This document shows, piece after piece, positions 2,492 to 63,724 of a DNA stretch of 64,000 nt. The DNA is taken from the NCBI GenBank assembly GCA_003151625.1, contig PLYC01000010.1, positions 133,515-197,514 on the forward strand. Reading direction: 5' to 3'. Made by a program: the position numbers and the translations under genes. Positions within the stretch are counted from its first letter, which is position 1. Each line of letters opens with the position of its first letter. The DNA comes from Candidatus Doudnabacteria bacterium (GTDB taxonomy: Bacteria > Patescibacteriota > Doudnabacteria > UBA920). The notes beneath the pieces were generated by a model. The model was not told the DNA's origin. It saw only the letters and a program-made list of their open reading frames with translations, and ran no database searches.

Positions 2492-3250
2492 TCACCTTAT
2501 TAGCAATGCCGCGCCCAAGGCGCCGGCGTTTTTTAATTTGGAAACCACAATACGAGGTTTTACTCTATAAGTTGAAAACATATTGGCGCAAATTGTTTCG
2601 GCATTTTTCACAAATTTGCGTTTACTATCGGTTGAGACTCCCCCGCCCAAAACTATAATATCCGGATCAAGCATGCGGCAAATATTCCACAATAAGAGGC
2701 TTACGATTTGTGACAGCTGCCTGTTATTATGGGAGTCGCGGGCTTTTTGAAAAAGACTTTCAAAAGTGTGCTTGCCGTCGTAAAGCATCCGGCCTACTTC
2801 TCCGGCTCCATAATGCCCTCCGGTATAAACTTTTCCGTCTAAAACAAAACCGCTGCCTACGCCGGTTCCTAAGATTACACCGACAACACTGTTATAATTC
2901 TTTCCTTGCCCTAATTTTGCTTCGGCGTAAGCAAAACACTTGGCATCGTTTGCGACCTCGAGTTTGAATTTATTCCCAAATAATTTTTTAAAATTAAAAT
3001 TGTTAATATACTTAATGTTCGGCGAATAAACGGCCGTTTGCTTTTTTATATTTATCACTCCTGCCATGCCTATGCCAATGCCGGTAATTTTCCGTCCGAC
3101 CGATAAAAAAGCCACCAAATGTTTTAGGCCATATGCAAAATCAGCCGCTGTTTTTGGAGTGACGATGGTCAGTTCTTTAATAACTTTTTTCCCGTCAAAC
3201 AAAATACCGGCGATTTTTGTCCCCCCAATATCTATTCCAATAATGTACAT
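2492..3250 (-). CDS. ROK-family sugar kinase (glucokinase-like)
   Basis: N-terminus YIIGIDIGGTKIAGILFDGK and GILGTGVGSGFVLDGKVYTGGHYGAGEVG are ROK signatures. Confidence 0.75.
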   Translation of the reverse strand: MYIIGIDIGGTKIAGILFDGKKVIKELTIVTPKTAADFAYGLKHLVAFLSVGRKITGIGIGMAGVINIKKQTAVYSPNIKYINNFNFKKLFGNKFKLEVANDAKCFAYAEAKLGQGKNYNSVVGVILGTGVGSGFVLDGKVYTGGHYGAGEVGRMLYDGKHTFESLFQKARDSHNNRQLSQIVSLLLWNICRMLDPDIIVLGGGVSTDSKRKFVKNAETICANMFSTYRVKPRIVVSKLKNAGALGAALLIR

Positions 3251-3255
3251 AGTAC

Positions 3256-3335
3256 TAAATAAAATTGACCAAAATTAAATAAAATTAAATAAAATTTGGA
3301 GATGTCTCTCAATTTTACTTATTTTTACTTAATTT
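3256..3335. repeat. AT-rich inverted-array element R5 (AAATAAAATT direct repeats facing AATTTTACTT repeats). Other copies at 9265-9370 and 57640-57735
   Basis: All three copies share the core aaattgaccaWaattaaRtaaaatt ... aattttacttaattttatttaatt. Confidence 0.5.
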
Positions 3336-3338
3336 TAT

Positions 3339-4328
3339 TTAATTCTTAAATAACTCTCTTGCCCTGTCCCAAAACTCCGGATGCCCGTGTTGCTGCATCC
3401 AATACCACCATTCTACACCCCATAGGTACTGCGGCGAAAACCCGGTTCCCGCGGCATGGGAAATAATTGTATTAAAATTATACATACTCATTGTTTTAAA
3501 CTGCTGGTCTATGGGCGTATTTGGAATGCCGGCGGTTGTCCATGGCTCTGCCTCAAGCTCGACTATCATTACTGGCTTGCCCGGATGAAGCACTCTTAAC
3601 AGCCCTGCTTTGAAACGGTAAAACCACGAAAAAAAATAAAAGTTTGTCCAATAGCGGTGCAGCACATCGGAATAAACATACCGGTAGTATGTTGTGCCAA
3701 ATTCATCTCCTCTGTCGCCCGCTTTAACCCACCAGTTTAGCTCACCGCTGTCGGTAATTAAAACCGAGCGGGACGGATCTAAATTTTTTACCAAAGCAAT
3801 TTCCTTATCAAAAAAGTTGACATCGAGCGGCGGACAGGGGCCAAATGAAGATAAAAATGGTTCGTTTTCCACCTGCCAAGTAGTTACAGAGCTGTCACCC
3901 TGGTATTTTTGTACCACAGTTTCTACATAAGACAACTGGGCATTTTGTTCGTCGGCAATTGATAATTTTGATGCCCATCCAGGTTCGTGACACTCCGGCC
4001 AACGCGGCAGGCGCTTACCAACAGCTAGAACTACCTGGACATGATTTTGCTTAGCCAAATCCAGCATATAATTTATATCATCAAAATTATATTGGTCGCG
4101 AGTATTTTCTACCTCGTCCCAATAAACCGGAATGCGGATTAATTTTACGCCGAGATCTTGGGTTGTGGACGCGTATGCCGCTTTCCAATCTATGCCCAAA
4201 CCCTGGGCGTAAGGCACGCTAAAAGTCACTCCGTACTGGATTTTTTTTGCTTTGGTACCGGCATTAAGCGTTACACACCAAATCGCCAGAACAATTAAAA
4301 TTACGGCAATTAATATTTTTCTTAACAT
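3339..4328 (-). CDS. Secreted glycoside hydrolase, clan GH-A (GH5-like TIM barrel)
   Basis: N-terminal signal peptide MLRKILIAVILIVLAIWCVTLNA. Motif WQVENEP carries the NEP acid/base; YWDEVE is also present. Confidence 0.6.
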   Translation of the reverse strand: MLRKILIAVILIVLAIWCVTLNAGTKAKKIQYGVTFSVPYAQGLGIDWKAAYASTTQDLGVKLIRIPVYWDEVENTRDQYNFDDINYMLDLAKQNHVQVVLAVGKRLPRWPECHEPGWASKLSIADEQNAQLSYVETVVQKYQGDSSVTTWQVENEPFLSSFGPCPPLDVNFFDKEIALVKNLDPSRSVLITDSGELNWWVKAGDRGDEFGTTYYRYVYSDVLHRYWTNFYFFSWFYRFKAGLLRVLHPGKPVMIVELEAEPWTTAGIPNTPIDQQFKTMSMYNFNTIISHAAGTGFSPQYLWGVEWWYWMQQHGHPEFWDRARELFKN

Positions 4329-9304: not shown

Positions 9305-9406
9305 AAATGGGGTGCTACATAATTATGTCAATTTTTTAAATTTTACTTAATTTTGCTCAATTCATTTTATTATACCATATCTATGGAGATTATCCCAGGG
9401 CAAATT

Positions 9407-11668: not shown

Positions 11669-11740
11669 TATTAATTGATATTAGGATATTAGGATATTCT
11701 TGATAATATCAGCCAATATCTATAATATCTATTAATATCT
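11666..11740. repeat. AT-rich inverted array (GATATTA x4 / TAATATC-type) between convergent genes
   Basis: tGATATTAattGATATTAgGATATTAgGATATT ... ATATCTATAATATCTATTAATATC. Likely a bidirectional terminator hairpin. Confidence 0.5.
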
Positions 11741-13018
11741 TTCCAGGTATCCCAAGACTATATCTTCCGCTTCTTCCAAATCTTTTGCGTTTAAAAGTTT
11801 GGCGCGGAGTTCGTGGGCGCCATTAAAACCACTGCAATAGGTTTTAAACTGTTTGCGCATTATAAAAAAAGATTTATGCTCGCCCAAGGTGTCTTGGAAT
11901 AGTTTGGCATGTTCGAGCATTGCCCGAAATCTCTCATTTAAACCAGGATGATAATCATCGGCGAGGAATAGCCACGGATTGCCAAACGCTCCCCTGCCTA
12001 TCATAACCCCGTCGCATCCGGTTTGCGCCACCCGTTCCAAGCCTTCTTGGCGTGACTTAATATCGCCGTTGCCTATAATTAGCGGCCGCAGGCCAACTTC
12101 TTTCCCTCTCCCTCTGGGAGAGGGTGAAGGGTGAGGGTTCATCGGAAACATTTCATCCCTAATCTCAACCGCCTCTTTAATGGCTTCCCAATGCGCCGGG
12201 GCTTTGGATTTTTCCTGCTTGGTGCGGGCGTGCAAAGTTAAAGCCGCAATGTTGGTTTCCAATAAATTTCTAACCCAATCGCCCATTTCATCGGTTTTAC
12301 TGTATCCCAATCTGGTTTTGACCGATACCGGTAAAAAACCGGCGGCTTTTTTTGTGGCGCTAATAATTTCCTGCGCCAATTTTGGCTCACGAATTAACGC
12401 GGCACAAGCGCCAATGCCGATTTCTTTGTCCTGCGGACAGCCCATATTTATGTCTATTCCGTCAAAACCCAAATCCACAATAATTTTGGCCGCCTCCTCA
12501 AACTTGGCCGGAGAATTTCCCCAAATTTGAGCGACTATCGGCCGCTGGATTTCCGAGTACTTTAAATCTATGGCCAAATTTTTCCTGCCCTCCGGATGCG
12601 TTAACCCGTCTACATTTATAAATTCCGTATACATTACGAAGCTATTACCACCTCCCCCCGCTGCGCGGGGTACTCCTCCTATGATAGGAGGAGATCTCCG
12701 CGTGTCATTCTGGGATAACTGCGGAGCGTTCCCCTCCTTGCTTAGGAGGGGTGGCTCGCGCAGCGAGACGGGGTGGTGACCGCTATAGCGGGCAAACATT
12801 TCCCGAAACGCAAAATCCGTTACCTCCTCCATGGGAGCAAGACAGAAAATCGGTTTACCCAGCACCTTCCAAAAATTATGCCCACCAGCTTCACCCAAAG
12901 CAAAAACCTCTGATTTTACATCAGATTTTCCATTTTGAAAGAAGGTGCTGGGCTTGTTAAGTTTTTGCCAGAAGCTGGACATATAGCTAAGTTTAATCAA
13001 AATACCGCTCCCGTGCAA
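11732..13018 (-). CDS. tRNA-dihydrouridine synthase (Dus family) carrying two in-frame GC-rich insertions
   Basis: Motifs LAPMEEVTDFAFREM, IDINMGCPQ and NGDI fit the Dus family. The probable true start is the Met at 12981, because the first Met lies inside the rplL terminator hairpin. Confidence 0.8.
   Translation of the reverse strand: MHGSGILIKLSYMSSFWQKLNKPSTFFQNGKSDVKSEVFALGEAGGHNFWKVLGKPIFCLAPMEEVTDFAFREMFARYSGHHPVSLREPPLLSKEGNAPQLSQNDTRRSPPIIGGVPRAAGGGGNSFVMYTEFINVDGLTHPEGRKNLAIDLKYSEIQRPIVAQIWGNSPAKFEEAAKIIVDLGFDGIDINMGCPQDKEIGIGACAALIREPKLAQEIISATKKAAGFLPVSVKTRLGYSKTDEMGDWVRNLLETNIAALTLHARTKQEKSKAPAHWEAIKEAVEIRDEMFPMNPHPSPSPRGRGKEVGLRPLIIGNGDIKSRQEGLERVAQTGCDGVMIGRGAFGNPWLFLADDYHPGLNERFRAMLEHAKLFQDTLGEHKSFFIMRKQFKTYCSGFNGAHELRAKLLNAKDLEEAEDIVLGYLERY
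12104..12137. repeat. Short GC-rich palindromic in-frame insertion in the Dus gene
   Basis: CCCTCTCCCTCTGGGAGAGGGTGAAGGGTGAGGG encodes the extra segment PHPSPSPRGRGKEVG. Confidence 0.6.
12648..12778. repeat. GC-rich palindromic element inserted in-frame in the Dus gene (family with 60840-60937 and 12104-12137)
   Basis: Terminal CCACCTCCCC...GGGGTGGTG, internal hairpins CTCCTCCTATGATAGGAGGAG and CCCCTCCTTGCTTAGGAGGGG. GC content far above the surrounding gene. Confidence 0.7.
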
Positions 13019-13131: not shown

Positions 13132-13527
13132 TTATTTGAGGGTCACTTTGCCACCAGCCTCTTCCAATTTCTTTTTTAAGGCTTCGGCATCGGCTTTCGG
13201 CATGTTTTCTTTGATAATTTTAGGAGCGCCGTCTACCATATCTTTGGCTTCCTTAAGACCGACCTGGGTAACTTCGCGGACAACTTTAATAACGTTAATT
13301 TTGCTGGCACCGGCTTCGGTTAATTCAACCGAGAATTCGGTTTTCTCTTCCGCAACGGCGGCGGCCGGACCTGCGGCCATCATCATAGGAGCGGCGGCAG
13401 AAACGCCAAACTTGCCTTCCAAAACTTTTACCAATTCAGCCAACTCCATAACGGAGAGCTTTTCTACCTGTTCCACGAGAGTTTTAAACTTCTCGGGCAC
13501 AACTACGGATTCTTTTTCTTCACTCAT
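13132..13527 (-). CDS. rplL: Ribosomal protein L7/L12
   Basis: Motifs [20 protein letters not shown] and [26 protein letters not shown]. Confidence 0.92.
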
Positions 13528-13570
13528 AATTTACCTTTCTATTAAAATCAATTAATAATTTACCTTTCCC

Positions 13571-13712
13571 GCTGATTAGTTGCTGATATGTACGCTGACT
13601 TTACGCTGAGCCTCAATACCTTCCTCGTGGATGATAGTTTAGATTCAGCGACTTATCAGCGTCCGCCTCGGCTCGAGTCGAGACGGGTCCCTATCGGCGT
13701 AGGTTCAGCGGC
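13571..13712. repeat. Phased GCTGA(T)/TCAGCG inverted-array element in the rplJ-rplL spacer (paralog of 62313-62433)
   Basis: gctgattagttgctgatatgtacgctgactttacgctga ... ttcagcgacttatcagcg ... ttcagcgg. About 80% identity with the element upstream of mraZ. Confidence 0.6.
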
Positions 13713-14222
13713 CTATACTGCAACAGGTACGCTTTCTCCAAGTTTTTTGGAACGCGCATCCAAAACTCTGACAAACGCGGATATGGTGCCGTTTAAAACA
13801 GACATAAACTGGGCACGCAACTGGTCTTTGGACGGCAGACTGCCCAAATCTTCCACCTGGATTTTGGAAAACAGTTTGCCTTCTACAAAACCTTCCAGAA
13901 TAGAAATAGTCTTAACCTCTTTGGTAAGATTTTTAACAATTCTGGCCGGAGCAACTTCGTCTTCGTTGGAAATTGACAGAATTACCGGGGTTTTATAATC
14001 GGCGATTTCAACCATAAGGCCGGCGTCCTTAATGGCTTTTTTTACCAAAGTCAGTTTATAAACTTTGGAAAAAACTTTTTCGGCGCGCAGGACTTTGCGG
14101 ATTTTATCCATATCTTTTACCGTTGTTCCGCGGTAATCGGTAAACACCACGGCTTTGGCCTCTTTAAGCTTGGCCGTGAGCTCTTTAAGGTCTTCTGTTT
14201 TTTGTGATTTTCCTTTTGGCAT
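13713..14222 (-). CDS. rplJ: Ribosomal protein L10
   Basis: Motifs KAVVFTDYRGTTVKDMDKIRK and EGKLFSKIQVEDLGSLPSK. Confidence 0.92.
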   Translation of the reverse strand: MPKGKSQKTEDLKELTAKLKEAKAVVFTDYRGTTVKDMDKIRKVLRAEKVFSKVYKLTLVKKAIKDAGLMVEIADYKTPVILSISNEDEVAPARIVKNLTKEVKTISILEGFVEGKLFSKIQVEDLGSLPSKDQLRAQFMSVLNGTISAFVRVLDARSKKLGESVPVAV

Positions 14223-14465
14223 AAATTAGTAGTTAGTAGTTAGTATCTAGCTTTTCGACCTTTAATTGTAAATATCTCAAAAATAAAACTCGGGCTTACC
14301 CGAGTGGTTGTAGTTGCCCGATTCATCAGGCCATAAAGCTTCATAAATGAAGCAACTACATATTCCTCGGTGGGCAACCATCTTGCGATGATAATTATGA
14401 CCCTACGGGTCACCAACTGTCTTTGGATATTTTCCCGCAGAGCGGGATCCGCCTTTGGCGGAAAC
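14223..14465 (-). promoter_or_regulatory. Putative rplJ (L10) leader region
   Basis: About 240 nt structured 5' UTR between the mapped promoter and the rplJ start, where the L10(L12)4 autoregulatory leader normally lies. Contains hairpins, for example GGGATCCGCCTTTGGCGG. Confidence 0.4.
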
Positions 14466-19127: not shown

Positions 19128-19327
19128 ATTCCTGTTTATTATAGCACGATTAAGCAGGCTTTTCTTTTTCCCTGTTTTATCTTATAATATACCTTAGTTG
19201 TCTTGTTTCGGATTTCGATTTTCGACATTCGAATTTTTAATACCTTGGGGCGTCGCCAAGCGGCCCGTCTCGGCCGAGGTTATCCGAATTAGCCGAGCCG
19301 AGGTGGATAAGGCAGCACAAAAAAACT

Positions 19328-19673: not shown

Positions 19674-19909
19674 TTAGTAAATAATTTATAAAGCATTGGC
19701 GTCGCTCGTCTCGGCTTCGCCGAGCCGAAGTCGGACCAAGCAGCCCGTCTCGGCCGAGGCTATCCGAATTAGCCGAGCCGAGGTCGGATAAGGCAGGGGC
19801 CTTTGAAGCCCCCATTCGTAGGTTCGAATCCTACCGCCCCAGCCAACAACTCTCTCATAATACCGGAGACCGAAGAGTATCAGCGTTTCAAGAGACAGTC
19901 AATGATTTT

Positions 19910-51483: not shown

Positions 51484-51770
51484 ATAAAAAAAATGTTAAA
51501 TCTTCATCCTATAACATAACCTTTAAGCTAAAAGCTTTGGCTAAGGAAAAGGAAGAAGTCAGACACAGGCTGGTAATAACCGCAAAAAACCTCAGCCTCA
51601 AAGCTAAACAACTGGTTAAGATAGCCAAGGAAAAAGAAGACGTTAGGCTCAGGCTGGCGGTAACGGCCAAAAACCTTAGCCTTAAAGCCAAACAACTCGT
51701 GGTAACGGCCAAGGAAAAGGAAGAAGTCAGACGCAGGTTGGTAGTAACGGCAAAGAACCTCAGCCTTTAA
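51480..51770 (+). CDS. N-terminal coiled-coil tandem-repeat segment of the histidine kinase, cut off by a 1-nt indel
   Basis: 27-aa repeats KAKQLV(K/V)IAKEKEDVRLRLAVTAKNLSL x3.5. Removing one T at about 51766 fuses this frame to the kinase ORF. Confidence 0.5.
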   Translation: MNKKNVKSSSYNITFKLKALAKEKEEVRHRLVITAKNLSLKAKQLVKIAKEKEDVRLRLAVTAKNLSLKAKQLVVTAKEKEEVRRRLVVTAKNLSL

Positions 51771-51786
51771 AGCTAAGCAGCTACTT

Positions 51787-53118
51787 GTGATAGCCAAGGA
51801 AAAAGAAGACGTTAGGCTCAAGCTGGCGGTAACGGCAAATGAATTGAAAAAGTCGCGCGAAACGCTCGAGAAAAAAGTTCTTGAACGGACCAAAAACCTT
51901 GAGCGGATTACAGCCAGAAACGAAGCCATGCTTGCGAGTGTTGGCGATGGTTTGGTGGTGGTGGATAAAGAAGGTAAAATAACTTATATTAACAAATCTT
52001 TTGAGGAGACGCTTGGTTTGAAAGTGCAGGAAGTAATCGGCAGGAGCATGGTTAAAGTGGTGCCCAGGGAAGACCAGAGCGGGACAGAGGTGCAATTTAA
52101 AGAAAGAATTTTAACTCAAGTCTTGCTGGGAAAAAAGTTTGTAGCCGATTTAACCAACCCTTTTTATTATATCCGTAAAGATAAAAGCAGATTCCCTGTC
52201 AGTAGTATTATAACGCCTGTCGTTCTGGACGGAAAAATTATTGGGGCGGTAGAAACGTTTAGAGATATTACCAAAGAAAAAGATATTGACAAAGCCAAAT
52301 CGGAATTCGTCTCGCTGGCTTCGCACCAGCTCCGTACCCCGCTTTCTACCATTAATTGGTATACGGAGATGCTTCTGGCGGAAGACGTCGGCAAAATCAT
52401 GCCTGAACAGAAAAAATATCTGGACGAGGTCTACCGCGGTACTCAAAGAATGACTGAGCTGGTCAACGCTCTTTTGAATATTTCCAGCATTGAATTAGGG
52501 ACATTTGTTGTTGACCCGGAACCAACAGACATAATCAAACTCGCGCAAGGCGAAATTGAGGAACAAAAACTGCAAATTGACGCCAAGCGTATAAAATTTT
52601 CTTCCTCATTCAAAAAGGATATTCCCGTGATTCTCGCCGATCCGAAACTCCTGCATATGGTCATGCAAAATCTTTTGACTAACGTCGTGAAATATACTCC
52701 CGAAGGGGGCAAGGTTACGCTTGAGATTGTCTTATCAGATGACCAAGGACGAACGACTCTCCCGAGTAAAATTAAAAGGTCACATGTCCTGATTAAAGTT
52801 TCCGATACGGGTTATGGCATTCCAAAGAACCAACAGGACAAAATTTTTACCAAGCTGTTCCGTGCCGATAACGTGCGGGACAAAGATACCGAAGGAACAG
52901 GCCTCGGGCTTTACATTGTAAAATCAATTATTGAACATTCCGGCGGCAAGATTTGGTTTGAGTCTCCGGGAGATGCACCTGTGGGAGGGAAGGATTTAGC
53001 CTTGGAGGGCAACCCCGGCACCACTTTTTATGCAACGCTTCCTTTGAATTCGGTGAAAAAGTCCGTCGAACGTGGATCTGTCTCTGATAAAAAAGAAGCC
53101 GCCAAGACAAATGATTAA
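51787..53118 (+). CDS. Sensor histidine kinase (PAS + HisKA + HATPase_c), cytoplasmic
   Basis: H-box FVSLASHQLRTPLSTI, N-box LLTNVVKYTPEGG and G-boxes DTGYGIP and GTGLGLYIVK. Confidence 0.85.
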   Translation: MIAKEKEDVRLKLAVTANELKKSRETLEKKVLERTKNLERITARNEAMLASVGDGLVVVDKEGKITYINKSFEETLGLKVQEVIGRSMVKVVPREDQSGTEVQFKERILTQVLLGKKFVADLTNPFYYIRKDKSRFPVSSIITPVVLDGKIIGAVETFRDITKEKDIDKAKSEFVSLASHQLRTPLSTINWYTEMLLAEDVGKIMPEQKKYLDEVYRGTQRMTELVNALLNISSIELGTFVVDPEPTDIIKLAQGEIEEQKLQIDAKRIKFSSSFKKDIPVILADPKLLHMVMQNLLTNVVKYTPEGGKVTLEIVLSDDQGRTTLPSKIKRSHVLIKVSDTGYGIPKNQQDKIFTKLFRADNVRDKDTEGTGLGLYIVKSIIEHSGGKIWFESPGDAPVGGKDLALEGNPGTTFYATLPLNSVKKSVERGSVSDKKEAAKTND

Positions 53119-57256: not shown

Positions 57257-57634
57257 ATGGATCAGGACAAAGATTTAGAAAAAAAAATAAATTTATATCA
57301 AGATGTGGCAAAAGACAACCCCAATGTGGATGTAGGGATGTTAATGTTAAATGCTCTGCAGAATGAAGATAAAAACAAAGTTTCGTCTAAAATGAAACGC
57401 TGGTCGTATTTAATTTCCCTGAGCGCGCCGCCTTTTGGTCTGCTGTTTGCTTTAAAACTTTATTTTAGCGACGAGGACGATGCCAAAGATGTGGCCTGGA
57501 TGTGCGTAACTTTAACAGCGGTATCTATATTGCTGTTTGCCATTGGCGCCAAAATGTTGTTTTCCAGTTCCGGTGCCAGCGTCAGCCAAATTGAAAAAAT
57601 TACTCCCCAGCAAATTCAGGAGCTGGGACAATAA
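57257..57634 (+). CDS. Hypothetical membrane protein
   Basis: 125 aa with two hydrophobic segments. Confidence 0.4.
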   Translation: MDQDKDLEKKINLYQDVAKDNPNVDVGMLMLNALQNEDKNKVSSKMKRWSYLISLSAPPFGLLFALKLYFSDEDDAKDVAWMCVTLTAVSILLFAIGAKMLFSSSGASVSQIEKITPQQIQELGQ

Positions 57635-57741
57635 AAAGTATTAAGTAAAATTGACCATAATTAAGTAAAATTAAATAAAATTTACTTCAGCCCAATTTTA
57701 CTTAATTTTATTTATTTTTATTTATTTTTAATTAATACTCT

Positions 57742-59475
57742 TTATTTTCCCGCCGTTCGTGTGGGAGCTACCTGCATATAATTTAAAATAAATTGCGCCA
57801 ATTGGCCCCAGGGCGGCACAGCCGTGCTTTCGGCAAAGTTGGCGTCACGCGGATGGTCCACCCGAATAAGCATGACAAACTGGGGATTTTCCACCGGCGC
57901 GAAACCAATAAAAGATCCGATGTTGTCGTTGACAATATATTTACCGTTTTGAACAACTTGAGCGGTGCCGGTTTTCCCCGCCACATAATAACCCGGCACT
58001 GCGGCTTTTTTTCCAAAACCGTTTTCCACTACATCCACCAGCATCGCGTCTATTGTGGCGGCAGTTTGAGGCGAAATTACCTGGCTAACAACCTGGGCTT
58101 GGGTGTTTTTGATAGTTCCATCGGGATAAATTTTAGACTGAACAATATACGGCTTCATCATTTTCCCGCCGTTGGCCAGGGCTCCGTAAGCCTGAAGCAT
58201 TTGGATTGGCGTAGCGGAAATCCCCTGCCCAAAACTCGCCGTGTCATAATTTACCGCAACATTGCCGTTAAGCCCGCTTAAGTCGCCTCTGGTCTCCGGC
58301 AGTTCAATGCCGGTGGGTTTGCCAAACCCGAACTTTTGTACATATTTTAAAAAGTCCGGGTTGCCCAATTGATTTTCCGTGTAAATCGCGCCAGTGTTAA
58401 GCGACCAATCCAAAACCTGGGTCATAGTTTGTACGCCACGCGCGCCGGGTTCCGCATTTTTAATTACATAATTATCCACCGCGACCTTCCCGGTATCGGT
58501 GTAAGTGGTGTCCGGGGTAATTTTCCCCTCGTCCAAAGCCGCGGCCATAGTAATGGCTTTAAAAGTTGAGCCCGGCTCGTAAGCCCCGGTTACAGCCTGG
58601 TTGTTGAACACCGAGGGGTCAGTAACTTTTCCGTAATTATTAGGGTCAAAATCGGGATAACTGGCAATGGCTAAAATCGCTCCGGTTTTGGGATTCATAA
58701 CAATAACATCACCGCTGTCCGCGCCGTTTTTGGTTACCATATCTTTAAGCACGCTCTCGGCCTGAAACTGGATGGTCTTGTCCACGGTCAAAATTAAATT
58801 CACACCGTCTTCGGCCGGTTTTTCGTTATTCGTCGCTCCAAAAATTTGCGCTCCGGATGGATCTTGCTCCGCTACCAGTTCACCGGGCGTGCCGGCTAGC
58901 TCTTTATCAAAATATCTTTCCAGCCCGTACAAACCCGATTTTTGCCCCGCGGCGTTAAAGCCCACAAAACCCAAAGTCTGGCTTAGCAACGTGTTTTGCG
59001 GGTATATTCTGGTGTCCTCGGAATCAAAATAAATTCCCGGGAGAGCCAAATCTTTTATTTTTTGCTGTTCGCTGTCCGTGAGCTGTTTTTTTAACGGGAC
59101 ATATTTTTTGTCCGTTTGAATAATTTTTGCCAGAACATCTTTTGAATTTAAATTTAAAACCGATGCCAAACTGCTGGCGGCTAAATTGGGATTTAAAATG
59201 TCGTTTGGCACAGCGTAAACTAAATAGCTTTTGGTATTGGTGGCCACCGGAACGGTTTGCTCGGAAAATTTGTCCGCCAATTTAATTTCGCCGCGGCTGG
59301 GAAATAATTTTAAATATATGCTGTGTTGTTGGTTGGCTTCCAGCCTGGCCTGGGCGCCGCGAATCACCTGCAAATAAAATAATCTATAAACTATAACGGC
59401 AAAAAACAGCAATAAAAAAGCAGTCAAAAGGCTGCTTCTGTGGTTAAAGGAACTTTGAACTATTTTACGAGCCAT
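57742..59475 (-). CDS. ftsI: Peptidoglycan D,D-transpeptidase (class B PBP, FtsI-like)
   Basis: N-terminal TM anchor, STFK active-site motif, SLN and KTGTA. dcw-cluster context with ftsL, rsmH and mraZ. Confidence 0.9.
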   Translation of the reverse strand: MARKIVQSSFNHRSSLLTAFLLLFFAVIVYRLFYLQVIRGAQARLEANQQHSIYLKLFPSRGEIKLADKFSEQTVPVATNTKSYLVYAVPNDILNPNLAASSLASVLNLNSKDVLAKIIQTDKKYVPLKKQLTDSEQQKIKDLALPGIYFDSEDTRIYPQNTLLSQTLGFVGFNAAGQKSGLYGLERYFDKELAGTPGELVAEQDPSGAQIFGATNNEKPAEDGVNLILTVDKTIQFQAESVLKDMVTKNGADSGDVIVMNPKTGAILAIASYPDFDPNNYGKVTDPSVFNNQAVTGAYEPGSTFKAITMAAALDEGKITPDTTYTDTGKVAVDNYVIKNAEPGARGVQTMTQVLDWSLNTGAIYTENQLGNPDFLKYVQKFGFGKPTGIELPETRGDLSGLNGNVAVNYDTASFGQGISATPIQMLQAYGALANGGKMMKPYIVQSKIYPDGTIKNTQAQVVSQVISPQTAATIDAMLVDVVENGFGKKAAVPGYYVAGKTGTAQVVQNGKYIVNDNIGSFIGFAPVENPQFVMLIRVDHPRDANFAESTAVPPWGQLAQFILNYMQVAPTRTAGK

Positions 59476-59995: not shown

Positions 59996-60121
59996 AGACT
60001 CATTTGCTGACGATTTTAATTTTTATTTTTTGTTTTGAGCTTTTGGCTTGTTTTATTTTTATTTTTCCGGCGGAGCCGGATCCCGTTCCGCGGGACATAT
60101 CCATAATCATTTATTTGCGTG

Positions 60122-61168
60122 TTAAAGTTTTGTAATCGCTCTTAGCTTTGCCGGTTTGCTTTTACTATTCAGTGCTAATTCGTGCGAATTAGCACTCACC
60201 GGTTTTTTTGTTAAAATTCTGCCCCTAGGGTCTCGCCCGCAAATACATTGGGGGAAATCTGGAGGGCAAACACAGCCTTTGGTTAACCCAACAAAAAATT
60301 GTTTAACAATTCTGTCTTCCAGAGAATGAAAGCTTACCACCACAAGCCTACCGCCGGGAACTAACAAATCAAAGGCTTTGGGCAAAAATTCCTGCAAATT
60401 TTCCAACTCGTGATTAACCTCTATCCTCAAGGCCTGGAAAATTCTCCTGGCACTGTCATCGGCCTTATGCTTTACCGGCTTTGGCAGCGCCTCTTCGATA
60501 ATCTGATAAAGTTGGTCTGTGTGCGTTATTTGGTTCCTGGTTCTTGAGTCTTGAATCTTCCGGCCTATTTGCCGGGCAAACTTCTCCTCGCCGTAATCTT
60601 CAAAAATTTTTATCAGCCGTTTTTCGTCGTAACTATTTAAAATAAACTTTGCATCTTCCGGCTGGCTTTGGTTAAACCTCATATCCAGCGGCTGGTTTGT
60701 CTGGAAGCTAATTCCGCGATGTTCTAATTCGTACGATGACAGTCCGAGATCTGCGACAATCCCGTCAGGAGCGGGAAAATTATGATTCTTTACTATGTGA
60801 TCTATCTTGGCAAAATTCCCCTGGATTATCATCGCGTTTCCACCCTCCCCTAGCCCCTCCCCTGAAGGGAGGGGAAAAGAACCCCCTAGATGTTCTGCAG
60901 TTTCCTCTCCCTTTAGGGGGGAGGTTAGGTGGGGGTGATTTTTGATATTTAAAATTTGAAGTTTAAAATTTTCTACCGCATCTTTATCCAAATCAATGGC
61001 CAGTAATTTCCCAGTTTTACCAATTTCTTTTAATATCGCTTTACTGTATCCCCCACCTCCTAAAGTCGCGTCCACGATATTCTGACCAGAACCGGGACTA
61101 AGATACTCCAAAACCTCGTTAAGTAGGACTGGAATGTGTTCATAGGTGTTCATTATGATATTAACCAA
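60122..61168 (-). CDS. rsmH: 16S rRNA (cytosine1402-N4)-methyltransferase RsmH with an in-frame GC-rich insertion
   Basis: HIPVLLNEVLEYL, VDATLGGGGYS and FHSLEDRIVK motifs. Extra segment HLTSPLKGEETAEHLGGSFPLPSGEGLGEGG. Confidence 0.9.
   Translation of the reverse strand: MVNIIMNTYEHIPVLLNEVLEYLSPGSGQNIVDATLGGGGYSKAILKEIGKTGKLLAIDLDKDAVENFKLQILNIKNHPHLTSPLKGEETAEHLGGSFPLPSGEGLGEGGNAMIIQGNFAKIDHIVKNHNFPAPDGIVADLGLSSYELEHRGISFQTNQPLDMRFNQSQPEDAKFILNSYDEKRLIKIFEDYGEEKFARQIGRKIQDSRTRNQITHTDQLYQIIEEALPKPVKHKADDSARRIFQALRIEVNHELENLQEFLPKAFDLLVPGGRLVVVSFHSLEDRIVKQFFVGLTKGCVCPPDFPQCICGRDPRGRILTKKPVSANSHELALNSKSKPAKLRAITKL
60840..60937. repeat. GC-rich palindromic element inserted in-frame in rsmH (same family as 12648-12778)
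   Basis: CCACCCTCCCC...GGTGGGGGTG termini. Internal hairpins CCCCTCCCC-TGAA-GGGAGGGG and CCTCTCCC-TTTA-GGGGGGAGG. Confidence 0.7.
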
Positions 61169-61854: not shown

Positions 61855-62286
61855 CTAAACTCCTAAAGACCCCAACTGTTCCGCTATCTGGTTTGAAGCC
61901 GCTTCGGTTTGCGCTTTGTAGGCTGTCCAGAGTTCTTCGCTCCAAATTTCTATACGGTTGTAGAGGCCGACCACAATAACTTTTTTGTTGATTTTGGCGA
62001 ATGTTTTTAAATAGCCGGGAATGATTATGCGCCCCTGCTTGTCAATTTCACAATCCATGGCGCCGGCCAACATGAGCCTGGAAAAAGCGCGGGTATTGGC
62101 GGTAGAAATTGGGAGACTAGCCAACTTTTCCGCAAGCTTTTTCCACTCATCCATACTATACAAAAAAAGTGAATTGTCTAACCCCCTGGTAACAACAATT
62201 TTTGATTTCAAACTCGGGCGAAACTTTGCCGGAATGGAAATTCTGCCTTTGTCGTCAATACTGGCTTGATATTCGCCGATGAACAT
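61855..62286 (-). CDS. mraZ: Transcriptional regulator MraZ
   Basis: MFIGEYQASIDDKGRISIPAKFR and a second SpoVT/AbrB-like half. Confidence 0.9.
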   Translation of the reverse strand: MFIGEYQASIDDKGRISIPAKFRPSLKSKIVVTRGLDNSLFLYSMDEWKKLAEKLASLPISTANTRAFSRLMLAGAMDCEIDKQGRIIIPGYLKTFAKINKKVIVVGLYNRIEIWSEELWTAYKAQTEAASNQIAEQLGSLGV

Positions 62287-62312
62287 TTTTCTAGTTTAGT
62301 TCTTGTTAGACC

Positions 62313-62433
62313 GCTGATTGGTCGCTGATAGGTACGCTGATCTTGCCGCTGAATTTTACCACCCTACTCGGGGAGAATGCTTAGACTCAGCGACTTTTCA
62401 GCGGTTACAGTCATTCAGCGGCTATTTCAGCGG
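62313..62433. repeat. Phased GCTGAT x4 / TCAGCG x5 inverted-array element upstream of mraZ (paralog of 13571-13712)
   Basis: ccGCTGATtggtcGCTGATaggtacGCTGATcttgccGCTGAA ... acTCAGCGacttTTCAGCGgttacagtcatTCAGCGgctatTTCAGCGG. Repeat period 11-12 bp. Confidence 0.6.
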
Positions 62434-62646
62434 AGTAGGGATATCCACAAGTCACACCACTTATCCCCACTTTTATCCACTTTTTACCATTGCTTATACA
62501 TTATATACCACAAAGACCCATAAGTCAAAGCTCGTAAAACTTTGTCAAACAATTAAAATACCCCTTAATTAAGGAGTATCTTAATACTTTTATAATTGTC
62601 TCTAAACTATATCCACAGCTATAAAAAAATTACTTGTTTTATGTCT

Positions 62647-63129
62647 TTATCCACTGATTATTTTGTAAGCCGCGATGCCAAAGGCCACGGAAACATTTAG
62701 GCTTTCCTTTTTACCGAGCATCGGGATTTCCACTACCGCATCGCAAAGCTTAAGCAATGACTTCTGTATCCCCTCCCGTTCCTCGCCTAAGATTAAAGCC
62801 AACGGAGACTTTGGTTTAAATTTATTTAGCGCCTTGGCTTTTACATTATTTTCCAAGCCGATGACTGTAAGTTTTGGGTATTGCTTGCGAAGTGACCTAA
62901 TAACCGCAAAAGCCGTGGGACTTTTTTCCCATGGTATCCAGGTTTCCGCTCCCAGCGCCACTTTGGATATTTTTGCAAGATGCGCGGGGTTTACAGGCGT
63001 ACCGGTATAGCCGGTTAAATAAATTTTATTGACATTAAAAGCGTCGGCAGTGCGAAAAATTGAGCCGACATTGTATAAAGATCTAATATTATTGGCAATT
63101 ACAAAAAATTCTTTGCCTGATTTTGGCAT
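62647..63129 (-). CDS. SpoU/TrmH-family RNA 2'-O-methyltransferase (SPOUT)
   Basis: GSIFRTADAF, LILGEEREG and VEIPMLG SPOUT motifs. Confidence 0.8.
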   Translation of the reverse strand: MPKSGKEFFVIANNIRSLYNVGSIFRTADAFNVNKIYLTGYTGTPVNPAHLAKISKVALGAETWIPWEKSPTAFAVIRSLRKQYPKLTVIGLENNVKAKALNKFKPKSPLALILGEEREGIQKSLLKLCDAVVEIPMLGKKESLNVSVAFGIAAYKIISG

Positions 63130-63325: not shown

Positions 63326-63724
63326 CTATTTTTGAGAAGACCCGGCGTTACAAATTCTGTCAATTCGTTTTGTTAAGATCCCCATTGTGACATCGGACTT
63401 CATAAAATAAGCTTCAACTTTGTATTTAGTGACCTTCTCAATGCTTTCATTATCGCTCAAGTTACTGACCACTAACACGGGAGTTTTTGCCAAAACCTGC
63501 TCCGGCATGGCTCGCAATTTTTCCAGGAACTTGAAACCATCAAGTTTAGGCAAAAGCAAATCCAATACTATTAAGTCCGGCCGACTGGCCTCCACTTGAT
63601 GCAGGGCTTCTTCCCCGTCTTTGGCCGGCACTACCAAATATCTGCCGATTAATTGGCTAAGAATTACGTTTCTTAACATATCATCGTCCTCCACTACTAA
63701 AATTTTTTTATCTGAATAGCTCAT
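63326..63724 (-). CDS. Stand-alone response-regulator receiver domain
   Basis: ILVVEDDD...LIVLDLLLPKLDG...VVSNL. Confidence 0.8.
   Translation of the reverse strand: MSYSDKKILVVEDDDMLRNVILSQLIGRYLVVPAKDGEEALHQVEASRPDLIVLDLLLPKLDGFKFLEKLRAMPEQVLAKTPVLVVSNLSDNESIEKVTKYKVEAYFMKSDVTMGILTKRIDRICNAGSSQK

Follow-up and report, generated by a model that had tools for sequence, protein, structure and literature searches.

Phased inverted arrays in the mraZ leader of a Doudnabacteria genome are gene-less members of a widespread hairpin repeat family tied to GxxExxY genes

What is a large array of short, helically phased and inverted repeats doing immediately upstream of mraZ, in the dcw (division and cell wall) cluster? 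The question is raised by a stretch of 64,000 nucleotides from a Candidatus Doudnabacteria bacterium (contig PLYC01000010.1, positions 133,515 to 197,514), referred to here as the window. The original prediction, made from the letters of this DNA, left three options for the element, namely a binding array for an unknown regulator, an RNA structure, or a miniature inverted-repeat transposable element (MITE) with subterminal repeats. Comparison with other genomes favours the last. The element upstream of mraZ (copy 1) and a second copy in the rplJ–rplL spacer (copy 2) are gene-less members of a widespread hairpin repeat and not a dedicated control site of the cell-division operon, and the array family to which they belong is statistically tied to genes for GxxExxY proteins. 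We consider it probable that both copies are non-autonomous, MITE- or REPIN-like members of a nuclease-associated inverted-array family and are co-transcribed as near-neutral hairpins; that GxxExxY proteins bind or move the arrays, that the two copies are transcribed and that they are neutral is what we infer from sequence.

Copy 1 (62311–62433) lies in the mraZ leader and, like copy 2, has no open reading frame (ORF); the two elements measure 121 and 144 nt and are the only copies in the 64 kb. Its left arm (62311–62352, plus strand) consists of a C followed by four exact CGCTGA hexamers starting at 62312, 62323, 62335 and 62347, and its right arm (62387–62433, minus strand) of four TCAGCG hexamers starting at 62387, 62398, 62415 and 62427 with a terminal G. 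Between them is a 34-nt centre (62353–62386) with the loop motif of what is here called subfamily A, ACCCTACTCGGGGAG...TTAGA. The layout is thus C-CGCTGA-N5-CGCTGA-N6-CGCTGA-N6-CGCTGA, the centre, and TCAGCG-N5-TCAGCG-N11-TCAGCG-N6-TCAGCG-G, with exact hexamers spaced by 11, 12 and 12 nt in the left arm and by 11, 17 and 12 nt in the right arm, where one spacer is 5–6 nt longer than the rest. The four GCTGA(T) repeats at 11–12 bp that had been described are therefore as stated, and so is the imperfect inverted structure with arms about 35 nt apart; the inverted TCAGCG array also exists, but it has four units rather than five and does not keep the same spacing. Either strand folds into an interrupted hairpin (−48.1 kcal/mol, z −4.8, and −52.1 kcal/mol, z −3.8). 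The termini of such inverted arms follow a consensus of about TAGAC-CGCTGA...TCAGCG-GTCTA and, as read from the sequence, the TGA within CGCTGA covers all three reading frames in canonical arms of 11/12/11 spacing.

A hexamer is short, and this shortness is all that speaks for a chance cluster of a common motif or for an assembly artefact. CGCTGA occurs 37 times on both strands of the window against 19.7 ± 4.6 expected, 14 of these 37 occurrences fall in the two elements, and copy 1 packs eight exact hexamers into 121 nt where about 0.04 would be expected, which is far beyond chance. Further, the same locus is present in two independently assembled contigs (L001, L002), and homologues are found in many genomes. 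Chance or artefact is hence excluded, and the phased CGCTGA/TCAGCG arrays are real.

Copy 2 (13569–13712) belongs to the same subfamily A and fills the rplJ–rplL spacer, one of its ends being 1 nt away from the stop codon of rplJ (13713–13715). When the window was searched with a profile built from 59 arms of other genomes (nhmmer), only two loci were returned, the left arm of copy 1 (E 3e-11) and copy 2 (E 1e-12). Both window copies have the arms of the GxxExxY-associated family proposed below, with three to four phased units of the CRCNGA type and typical termini. Copy 2, too, forms a long interrupted hairpin on either strand, with a fold at −58.9 kcal/mol (z −4.8). An element about 80% identical to copy 1 had been noted at 13571–13712; the homologue is indeed there, with slightly wider bounds and an identity of 68% over its whole length, which rises to 78% over the first 93 nt and to 86% over the left arm. 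The value for the whole length is low because the right arm of copy 2 has received a 28-nt secondary insert (13662–13689), itself a small hairpin, which is absent from the orthologous copy of a close relative (L198, RplJ 98% identical). On the transcript strand this insert reads CCCGTCTCG...GCCGAGG, and both of its halves are shared with a 49-nt repeat at 19256–19304 and 19736–19784 that adjoins tRNA genes; a third tRNA call there (19776–19834) covers only model positions 9–63. A 14-nt segment, ATAATTTACCTTTC, also occurs twice beside copy 2 (13526–13539 and 13555–13568, 15 nt between). On the transcript strand it is GAAAGGTAAATTAT, which comprises the ribosome-binding region of rplL and the first two letters (AT) of its start codon; one instance stands at the rplL start, the other adjoins the end of the element, and L198 has the duplication too (13 of 14 positions). 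This duplication may be linked to the insertion event of copy 2.

How far does the repeat extend beyond this genome? A scan with one exact pattern, requiring two inner units on each side and taking one genome per species, matched at least 115 loci, against about six expected by chance (our estimate, uniform base composition). As a single pattern was used, the scan counts are lower bounds and are biased towards CGCTGA-type arms. With the Actinobacterial matches set aside, at least 57 elements carry at least 3+3 units, often several per metagenome-assembled genome (MAG), and their hosts are Saccharibacteria, Parcubacteria, Doudnabacteria, Daviesbacteria, Staskawiczbacteria, Verrucomicrobia, Chloroflexi, Planctomycetes and Syntrophobacteraceae/Desulforhabdus, including a cultured organism, Desulforhabdus sp. 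TSK, with a gene-less element (L114). Unit spacing follows lineage (11/12/11 in Patescibacteria; 9/11/10 in Chloroflexi and Syntrophobacteraceae), and the few bases beyond the outer unit differ between lineages as well. Patescibacterial elements typically take up all of the spacer between co-directional genes, with ends 1–4 nt after a stop codon and 4–7 nt before the next ATG. The 34-nt loop of subfamily A recurs at two Saccharibacteria loci and one Doudnabacteria locus with 74% column identity (alignment A4), and a second loop type, AACGTCAATGTCAGC, links Doudnabacteria and Saccharibacteria elements (alignment A5). The presence of the same subfamilies in different Patescibacterial lineages suggests horizontal spread. 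Phages are not evident vehicles, as 2.9 million viral contigs yielded one pattern match and one GxxExxY match. A multi-copy repeat at many unrelated intergenic sites in many phyla supports the MITE option. It is also the outcome that the original prediction, in proposing a genome-wide count of the element and its contexts, had named as refuting a regulator site.

An associated gene is found at the few loci whose arms stand 400–500 nt apart, where the interval is taken up by one ORF of 133–136 aa. Such gene-bearing elements are found in Saccharibacteria (L006 3406–3882) and Anaerolineales (L090 4622–5201), each with the ORF between its arms, and in L065, whose ORF has a complete hairpin on one side and an additional right arm on the other. 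The enclosed ORFs match only the TIGR04256 GxxExxY protein (E 1e-25 to 6e-40) and PF13366 PDDEXK_3. The MAG of L006 has gene-less copies as well (L006 68–148, L024, L080), and the Doudnabacteria MAG nzgw384 contains both gene-less copies (L052, L069, L110) and a GxxExxY gene (L110). The window copies align with elements from GxxExxY-bearing MAGs.

The converse test started from the genes. Eighty GxxExxY genes were taken from metagenome contigs (at least 524 of 600 candidates confirmed), 64 of them with complete flanks. In 78–83% of the 64, compared with at most 5% of controls, the flanks are mutual inverted repeats, by thresholds set at the 99th percentile of shuffled controls or at the 95th of position-shifted ones, and an exact 5-mer is repeated at least three times on both sides in 41%, compared with 0.2% and 1.3% in the controls. 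An enclosing or adjacent array hairpin accompanies 53 of the 64 genes. The gene stands between two arms in 36 cases and between two arms with one or two additional complete hairpins in 14; three genes have an adjacent hairpin only and 11 have none. The array family is thus statistically tied to GxxExxY genes. The units take the forms CGCTGA, CGCGGA, CGCAGA, CGCGAA, CACGGA, CACAGA, CACGAA, CACCGA and TACGAA, with a few outliers, for which CRCNGA is the general form. All units of an element are of one motif type, which differs from gene to gene, while position 4 varies even within an element. Sister GxxExxY proteins tend to share a unit type, a correspondence of motif and protein that is confounded by shared descent. 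On a single contig, one gene has four CGCTGA units per side and a second, decayed gene has four TACGAA units per side. Cultured examples exist in Gemmatirosa kalamazoonensis KBS708, where a GxxExxY gene is followed by a CGCGGA 3+3 hairpin, and in Fusobacteria bacterium ZRK30, where the example is on a plasmid.

Since gene-bearing and gene-less copies share the architecture of their arms, the latter might be immobile scars comparable to solo long terminal repeats (LTRs), left when the GxxExxY gene was lost by recombination between the arms. Decayed genes with degenerate arrays do exist (L110, L006 1812–2135), as such a process would have it. However, the same specific 34-nt or 15-nt loop occurs at unrelated sites within and across phyla, which independent deletions would not yield, and among the matches listed gene-less elements of the CGCTGA type are more than 10 times as numerous as those with a gene. 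We regard the scar explanation as improbable.

What kind of protein is encoded by these genes? Its invariant residues, E33, P71-D72 and E82-x-K84, form the canonical E...PD...(D/E)XK set, and an AlphaFold (AF2) model (pLDDT 86, pTM 0.80) predicts a minimal restriction-endonuclease-like PD-(D/E)XK fold. No solved structure was found by sequence search; the nearest solved structures, all of them distant, are Cas4 SSO0001 (E 5e-4), the LHK and lambda exonucleases, MGME1 and the Hjc resolvase. From the residues and the model, the nuclease looks active. Among collections of defence and phage families, PADLOC gave only marginal Cas4/Csn2 matches (E about 0.01) and PHROGs gave none. The only survey listing the Pfam family (PF13366) gives its function as unknown (PMC3424549). 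Two alternatives were considered and set aside. Ends of the IS607, Tn7 or IS21 type are not indicated, as none of the arms examined had a transposase of these kinds next to them or in the interval they enclose. In one relative (MraZ 93% identical), a gene for 23S_rRNA_IVP (PF05635, a four-helix bundle) lies two genes upstream of mraZ (L208 1–163). The four-helix-bundle 23S_rRNA_IVP proteins are the other small protein family of hairpin intervening sequences, but this gene was rejected as alternative cargo, as no array lies just downstream of it in this sole case.

Returning to the window, where does copy 1 stand relative to the signals that control mraZ? The mraZ gene (61855–62286, minus strand) is separated by a 360-nt spacer from an upstream neighbour encoding a SpoU-type methyltransferase (62647–63129). 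Read along the minus strand, the spacer contains a promoter-like site, four GTGG boxes, the element, 24 nt and the ATG. The promoter-like site (TTGACT-17-TATAAT, 62528–62500, minus strand) matches the consensus at 11 of 12 positions and is kept in relatives. The four MraZ-type GTGG boxes (62480–62445, minus strand), at 10–12 bp spacing, lie outside the element and are kept in seven related lineages. An extra GTGG directly precedes the −10 hexamer; it is conserved together with the promoter and the boxes in the seven lineages, whereas the downstream sequence is not. Because of the match to the promoter consensus and its conservation in relatives, copy 1 most likely lies in the 5′ leader of mraZ, downstream of the predicted transcription start, and not in the promoter. 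The element had been assigned to the dcw promoter region, which does not hold, as it lies downstream of the promoter-like site and the MraZ boxes; that its motif is not the GTGGG-type box of MraZ does hold, since it contains no GTGG array and a separate four-box array stands at 62445–62480.

A place in a leader invites the idea that the hairpin is a cis-acting RNA useful to the host in mRNA processing (for example by RNase III), in stability or in downstream translation, with selection retaining some hairpin at the site. Both copies are predicted to be transcribed and to fold stably, all seven mraZ-leader lineages and all four rplJ–rplL lineages examined have a hairpin-like element in place, and elements often end 4–7 nt before the next start codon. 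Yet the pairing itself does not seem to be what is conserved. In 17 elements of other genomes with canonical 11/12/11 arms, the spacers are complementary to their own partner at 43% of positions and to unrelated arms at 54%, and the unit variants of arrays that flank genes often fall out of register or differ from one arm to the other, to the point of being non-complementary (L124). Conservation lies in the unit sequence, about aCGCTGAt, and in the phasing, which is the signature of a predicted sequence-specific binder and not of an RNA stem. A continuous hairpin or a covarying RNA was rejected on these grounds. In the Rfam covariance scan of the window only tRNAs reached the gathering score, with nothing credible at E ≤ 10 on either element. 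No intrinsic terminator was predicted at either window copy, and no U-tract follows either one. Copies of subfamily A can face either way with respect to the genes beside them, and the many unrelated sites and the tie to a nuclease gene also count against a host RNA. The RNA-structure option of the original prediction is accordingly not upheld, and we consider a host-useful RNA hairpin an unlikely explanation of the family, though less so than the scar explanation. An RNA role may be secondary or co-opted and would be compatible with a selfish element.

Whether the element belongs to its site can be asked of close relatives. The similarity of its RplJ and MraZ places the source among Doudnabacteria-like Patescibacteria. 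The mraZ leader of the window was compared with those of six further lineages with MraZ proteins 89–99% identical. In all seven the promoter and the four MraZ boxes are almost unchanged, and a different array element precedes the ATG. The window has a CGCTGA element of subfamily A, whereas the nearest relative (L204, MraZ 99%) has a CGCTGA element of subfamily B that ends 6 nt from the ATG and whose loop matches elements in Saccharibacteria and Doudnabacteria. A larger element of the ACGAAT type is found in L205/L206 (96%), a CACAGA/CACGGA type in L207 (94%), another CGCTGA element adjoining a decayed CAGAT-type remnant in L208/L209 (93%), a CGCGGA 4+4 element in L210/L211 (90%) and an AT-rich hairpin with TAGAAGCC...GGCTTCTA-like ends in L212/L213 (89%). 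The rplJ–rplL spacer behaves in a similar manner. L198 (RplJ 98%) has the orthologous subfamily-A copy, relatives at 86% and 80% have an AT-rich hairpin, and a relative at 82% has a hairpin with a 7-nt period. The AT-rich type occupies both the mraZ leader and the rplJ–rplL spacer of one genome, on the same contig (L202, L212). From these alignments, elements at a given site are evidently exchanged on short evolutionary time scales, by replacement or by insertion beside a resident that then decays, because the non-coding flanks are near-identical while the type differs, which point mutation cannot explain. One pair of contigs with the same MraZ stands apart in its flanks: L205 and L206 share the ACGAAT-type element and everything downstream, and upstream of the left end of the element they are wholly different, with the promoter and MraZ boxes missing from L206. 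Either a rearrangement had its breakpoint at the element, or the assembly is chimeric.

Such turnover bears directly on the idea of an operator array for a host transcription factor of the dcw cluster, for example a response regulator binding hexamers every 11 bp. Hexamers in helical phase are, as a matter of general knowledge, typical of OmpR/PhoB-type and ParR-type sites, and the geometry of the element fits an OmpR/PhoB site. Receiver-domain genes also lie nearby (window 63326–63724), and in Actinobacteria GCTGA-N6 repeats stand directly upstream of an OmpR-type two-component operon (L105). However, the nearby receivers supply no cognate winged-helix regulator, each consisting of a single domain and lacking any recorded DNA-binding domain. 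Relatives that are nearly identical keep the promoter and MraZ boxes but have elements of other motif types in place of this one, another copy sits within the rplJL operon, and copies fill the spacers of unrelated genes in many phyla. The regulator option must therefore be given up as very improbable for this element.

The Actinobacterial scan matches (L105 5430–5500; L011, L083, L095, L102, L103, L106, L107, L115) have the form GCTGA-N6-GCTGA with inverted counterparts and immediately precede two genes, the first for an OmpR-family response regulator and the second for a histidine kinase (L105 5519–6211 and 6257–7585). They are probably autoregulatory boxes unrelated to the hairpin family. 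In a Saccharibacteria MAG, a receiver-only response-regulator gene (minus strand, about 1050–1404) lies exactly between two CGCTGA elements (L024 934–1536), the second of which holds an internal insert.

How could such a family persist and move? We propose tentatively, at somewhat less than even odds, that GxxExxY proteins are the enzymes of an unrecognised class of mobile element, in which a minimal nuclease binds phased arrays and drives homing or copy-replacement at fixed intergenic sites, and a gene-less, REPIN-like population colonises operon spacers and leaders, notably in Patescibacteria. Each arm of these elements is a direct array of three to four units, (C)CGCTGA(W) here and CRCNGA across the family, at 9–12 bp spacing, and the arms face each other across a short loop. 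In full-length relatives, one gene takes the place of the loop and encodes a GxxExxY protein of 125–136 aa, a predicted minimal PD-(D/E)XK nuclease. This nuclease would recognise the phased units cooperatively as a multimer and promote either transposition or break-induced, homing-like copy-replacement, for which the arms would provide both recognition and homology. Like MITEs and REPINs, gene-less copies would rely in trans on a nuclease encoded at another place in the genome. Within operon spacers and leaders the elements would be co-transcribed, and their arms would pair into an interrupted RNA hairpin without a U-tract. Insertion would be close to neutral because such a hairpin neither terminates transcription nor permanently separates the flanks. 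An insert that folds away in the transcript would explain why insertions persist in a leader and in operon spacers only a few nucleotides long. The TGA in all frames would stop read-through translation and may be a by-product. The mraZ leader and the rplJ–rplL spacer are sites where residents are repeatedly replaced or joined by other members of the family.

Several observations weigh against this account. There is no GxxExxY gene in the 64-kb window of the source genome, and a 125-aa PD-(D/E)XK protein is not a known type of transposase, with no report of binding or cleavage for the family in the literature. Because the arrangements vary, with the gene between the arms, beside a complete hairpin or with the same arm on both sides, the GxxExxY gene could be a separate parasite that homes to the hairpins and not the enzyme that mobilises them. 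No empty site was seen at either locus (seven mraZ and four rplJ–rplL lineages), so that mobility is deduced from turnover and copy distribution and the insertion point and any duplication are not definable. With both sites occupied in every lineage examined, a hairpin there could be useful to the host. Finally, no clear target-site duplication was found. TA is enriched at −5/−4, where it is palindromic and could equally be part of a terminal repeat; a TA target duplication was considered and not adopted, as few of the elements, a minority, have TA at both ends and it is inseparable from a terminal repeat.

Which known systems does the family resemble? REP/REPIN sequences with their RAYT genes are short, inverted, hairpin-capable intergenic repeats in which a nuclease-type gene is flanked by inverted repeats and gene-less doublets are commoner (PMC3116915, PMC2817692, PMC3333891). 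The likeness lies in dispersed inverted hairpins, a single associated nuclease-type gene and a large excess of gene-less copies. Unlike RAYTs, which are HUH/Y1 transposases, the GxxExxY proteins are of the PD-(D/E)XK type; and whereas a REP is a palindrome of 20–40 nt with a GTAG or CGTC head, the arms here are made of three to four phased units of 6–7 nt with non-complementary spacers. MITEs with subterminal repeats are known from the plant hAT and CACTA types, and the ends of Mu, Tn7 and IS21 hold several transposase sites. The elements described here share with MITEs their small size, non-coding and multi-copy nature, phased inverted end repeats resembling binding sites, and longer gene-bearing relatives. 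They differ in consisting of almost nothing but repeat arrays and in that no DDE or other known transposase is linked to them and no target-site duplication is demonstrated. Correia (NEMIS) elements, restricted to Neisseria, are inverted repeats of 100–150 bp with 26-bp terminal repeats, a TA duplication and an IHF site. They, too, are inserted between promoter and gene or between genes of an operon, form co-transcribed RNA hairpins and contain no transposase. In contrast, the window element has other termini, a host of another phylum and no IHF site, and its TA enrichment is ambiguous. The 23S rRNA of Coxiella burnetii carries a hairpin intervening sequence with an S23p ORF (PMC4990558). It resembles the present family in being a selfish hairpin that is transcribed, may or may not hold a small ORF in its loop and, through its fold, keeps the insertion harmless. 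It differs in its place in 23S rRNA helices and its four-helix-bundle protein, with phased arrays undescribed, compared with mRNA leaders and spacers and a PD-(D/E)XK protein here. Lastly, phased operators and centromeres, such as MraZ boxes, OmpR/PhoB sites and ParR–parC, likewise have short units at each helical turn, implying cooperative binding of a multimer. These are single-locus arrays tied to one promoter or plasmid, whereas the array here is dispersed and distinct from the MraZ boxes.

The window contains other repeats and oddities. A second inverted-array family, AT-rich and with a 10-bp period, is present at 3246–3350, 9328–9372 and 57632–57745. It has the layout of the CGCTGA elements with a different unit, (T)AA(G/A)TAAAAT three to four times, a short loop and ATTTTA(C/T)TT four times, and its third copy adjoins the ftsI stop codon (57742–57744) within the dcw cluster. 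A twin mini-hairpin of two adjacent 6-bp stems with loops of 3–4 nt occurs in three copies (193–224, 14433–14464 and 60066–60097), one of them upstream of rplJ and one between rsmH and ftsL. Its stems show compensatory changes between copies (TCCGCC/GGCGGA, TCCCGC/GCGGGA, TCCGGC/GCCGGA). RsmH (60122–61168) has 348 aa compared with 310–314 in close relatives, and a Dus-like protein (11732–13018) has 428 aa compared with 332–419; each contains a stretch rich in Gly, Pro and Ser that looks like an in-frame insertion (in RsmH, ...GGSFPLPSGEGLGEGG...). Finally, four tandem units of 84–85 nt, 61–89% identical to the reference copy, occupy 51516–51839.

In the literature searched, the link of PD-(D/E)XK GxxExxY genes with phased inverted arrays appears to be undescribed. 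If true, it would for the first time set a very large family of unknown function, TIGR04256/PF13366, in a functional context; at least hundreds of close relatives were returned from Patescibacteria alone. PD-(D/E)XK proteins would become the third type of enzyme tied to hairpin repeats of bacteria, after the HUH RAYTs and the DDE transposases. For annotators, it would mean that such arrays are not to be read as operators or as riboswitch-like leaders. It would also mean that the streamlined genomes of Patescibacteria tolerate, and rapidly exchange, selfish hairpins in essential operons such as the dcw leader and a ribosomal-protein operon.

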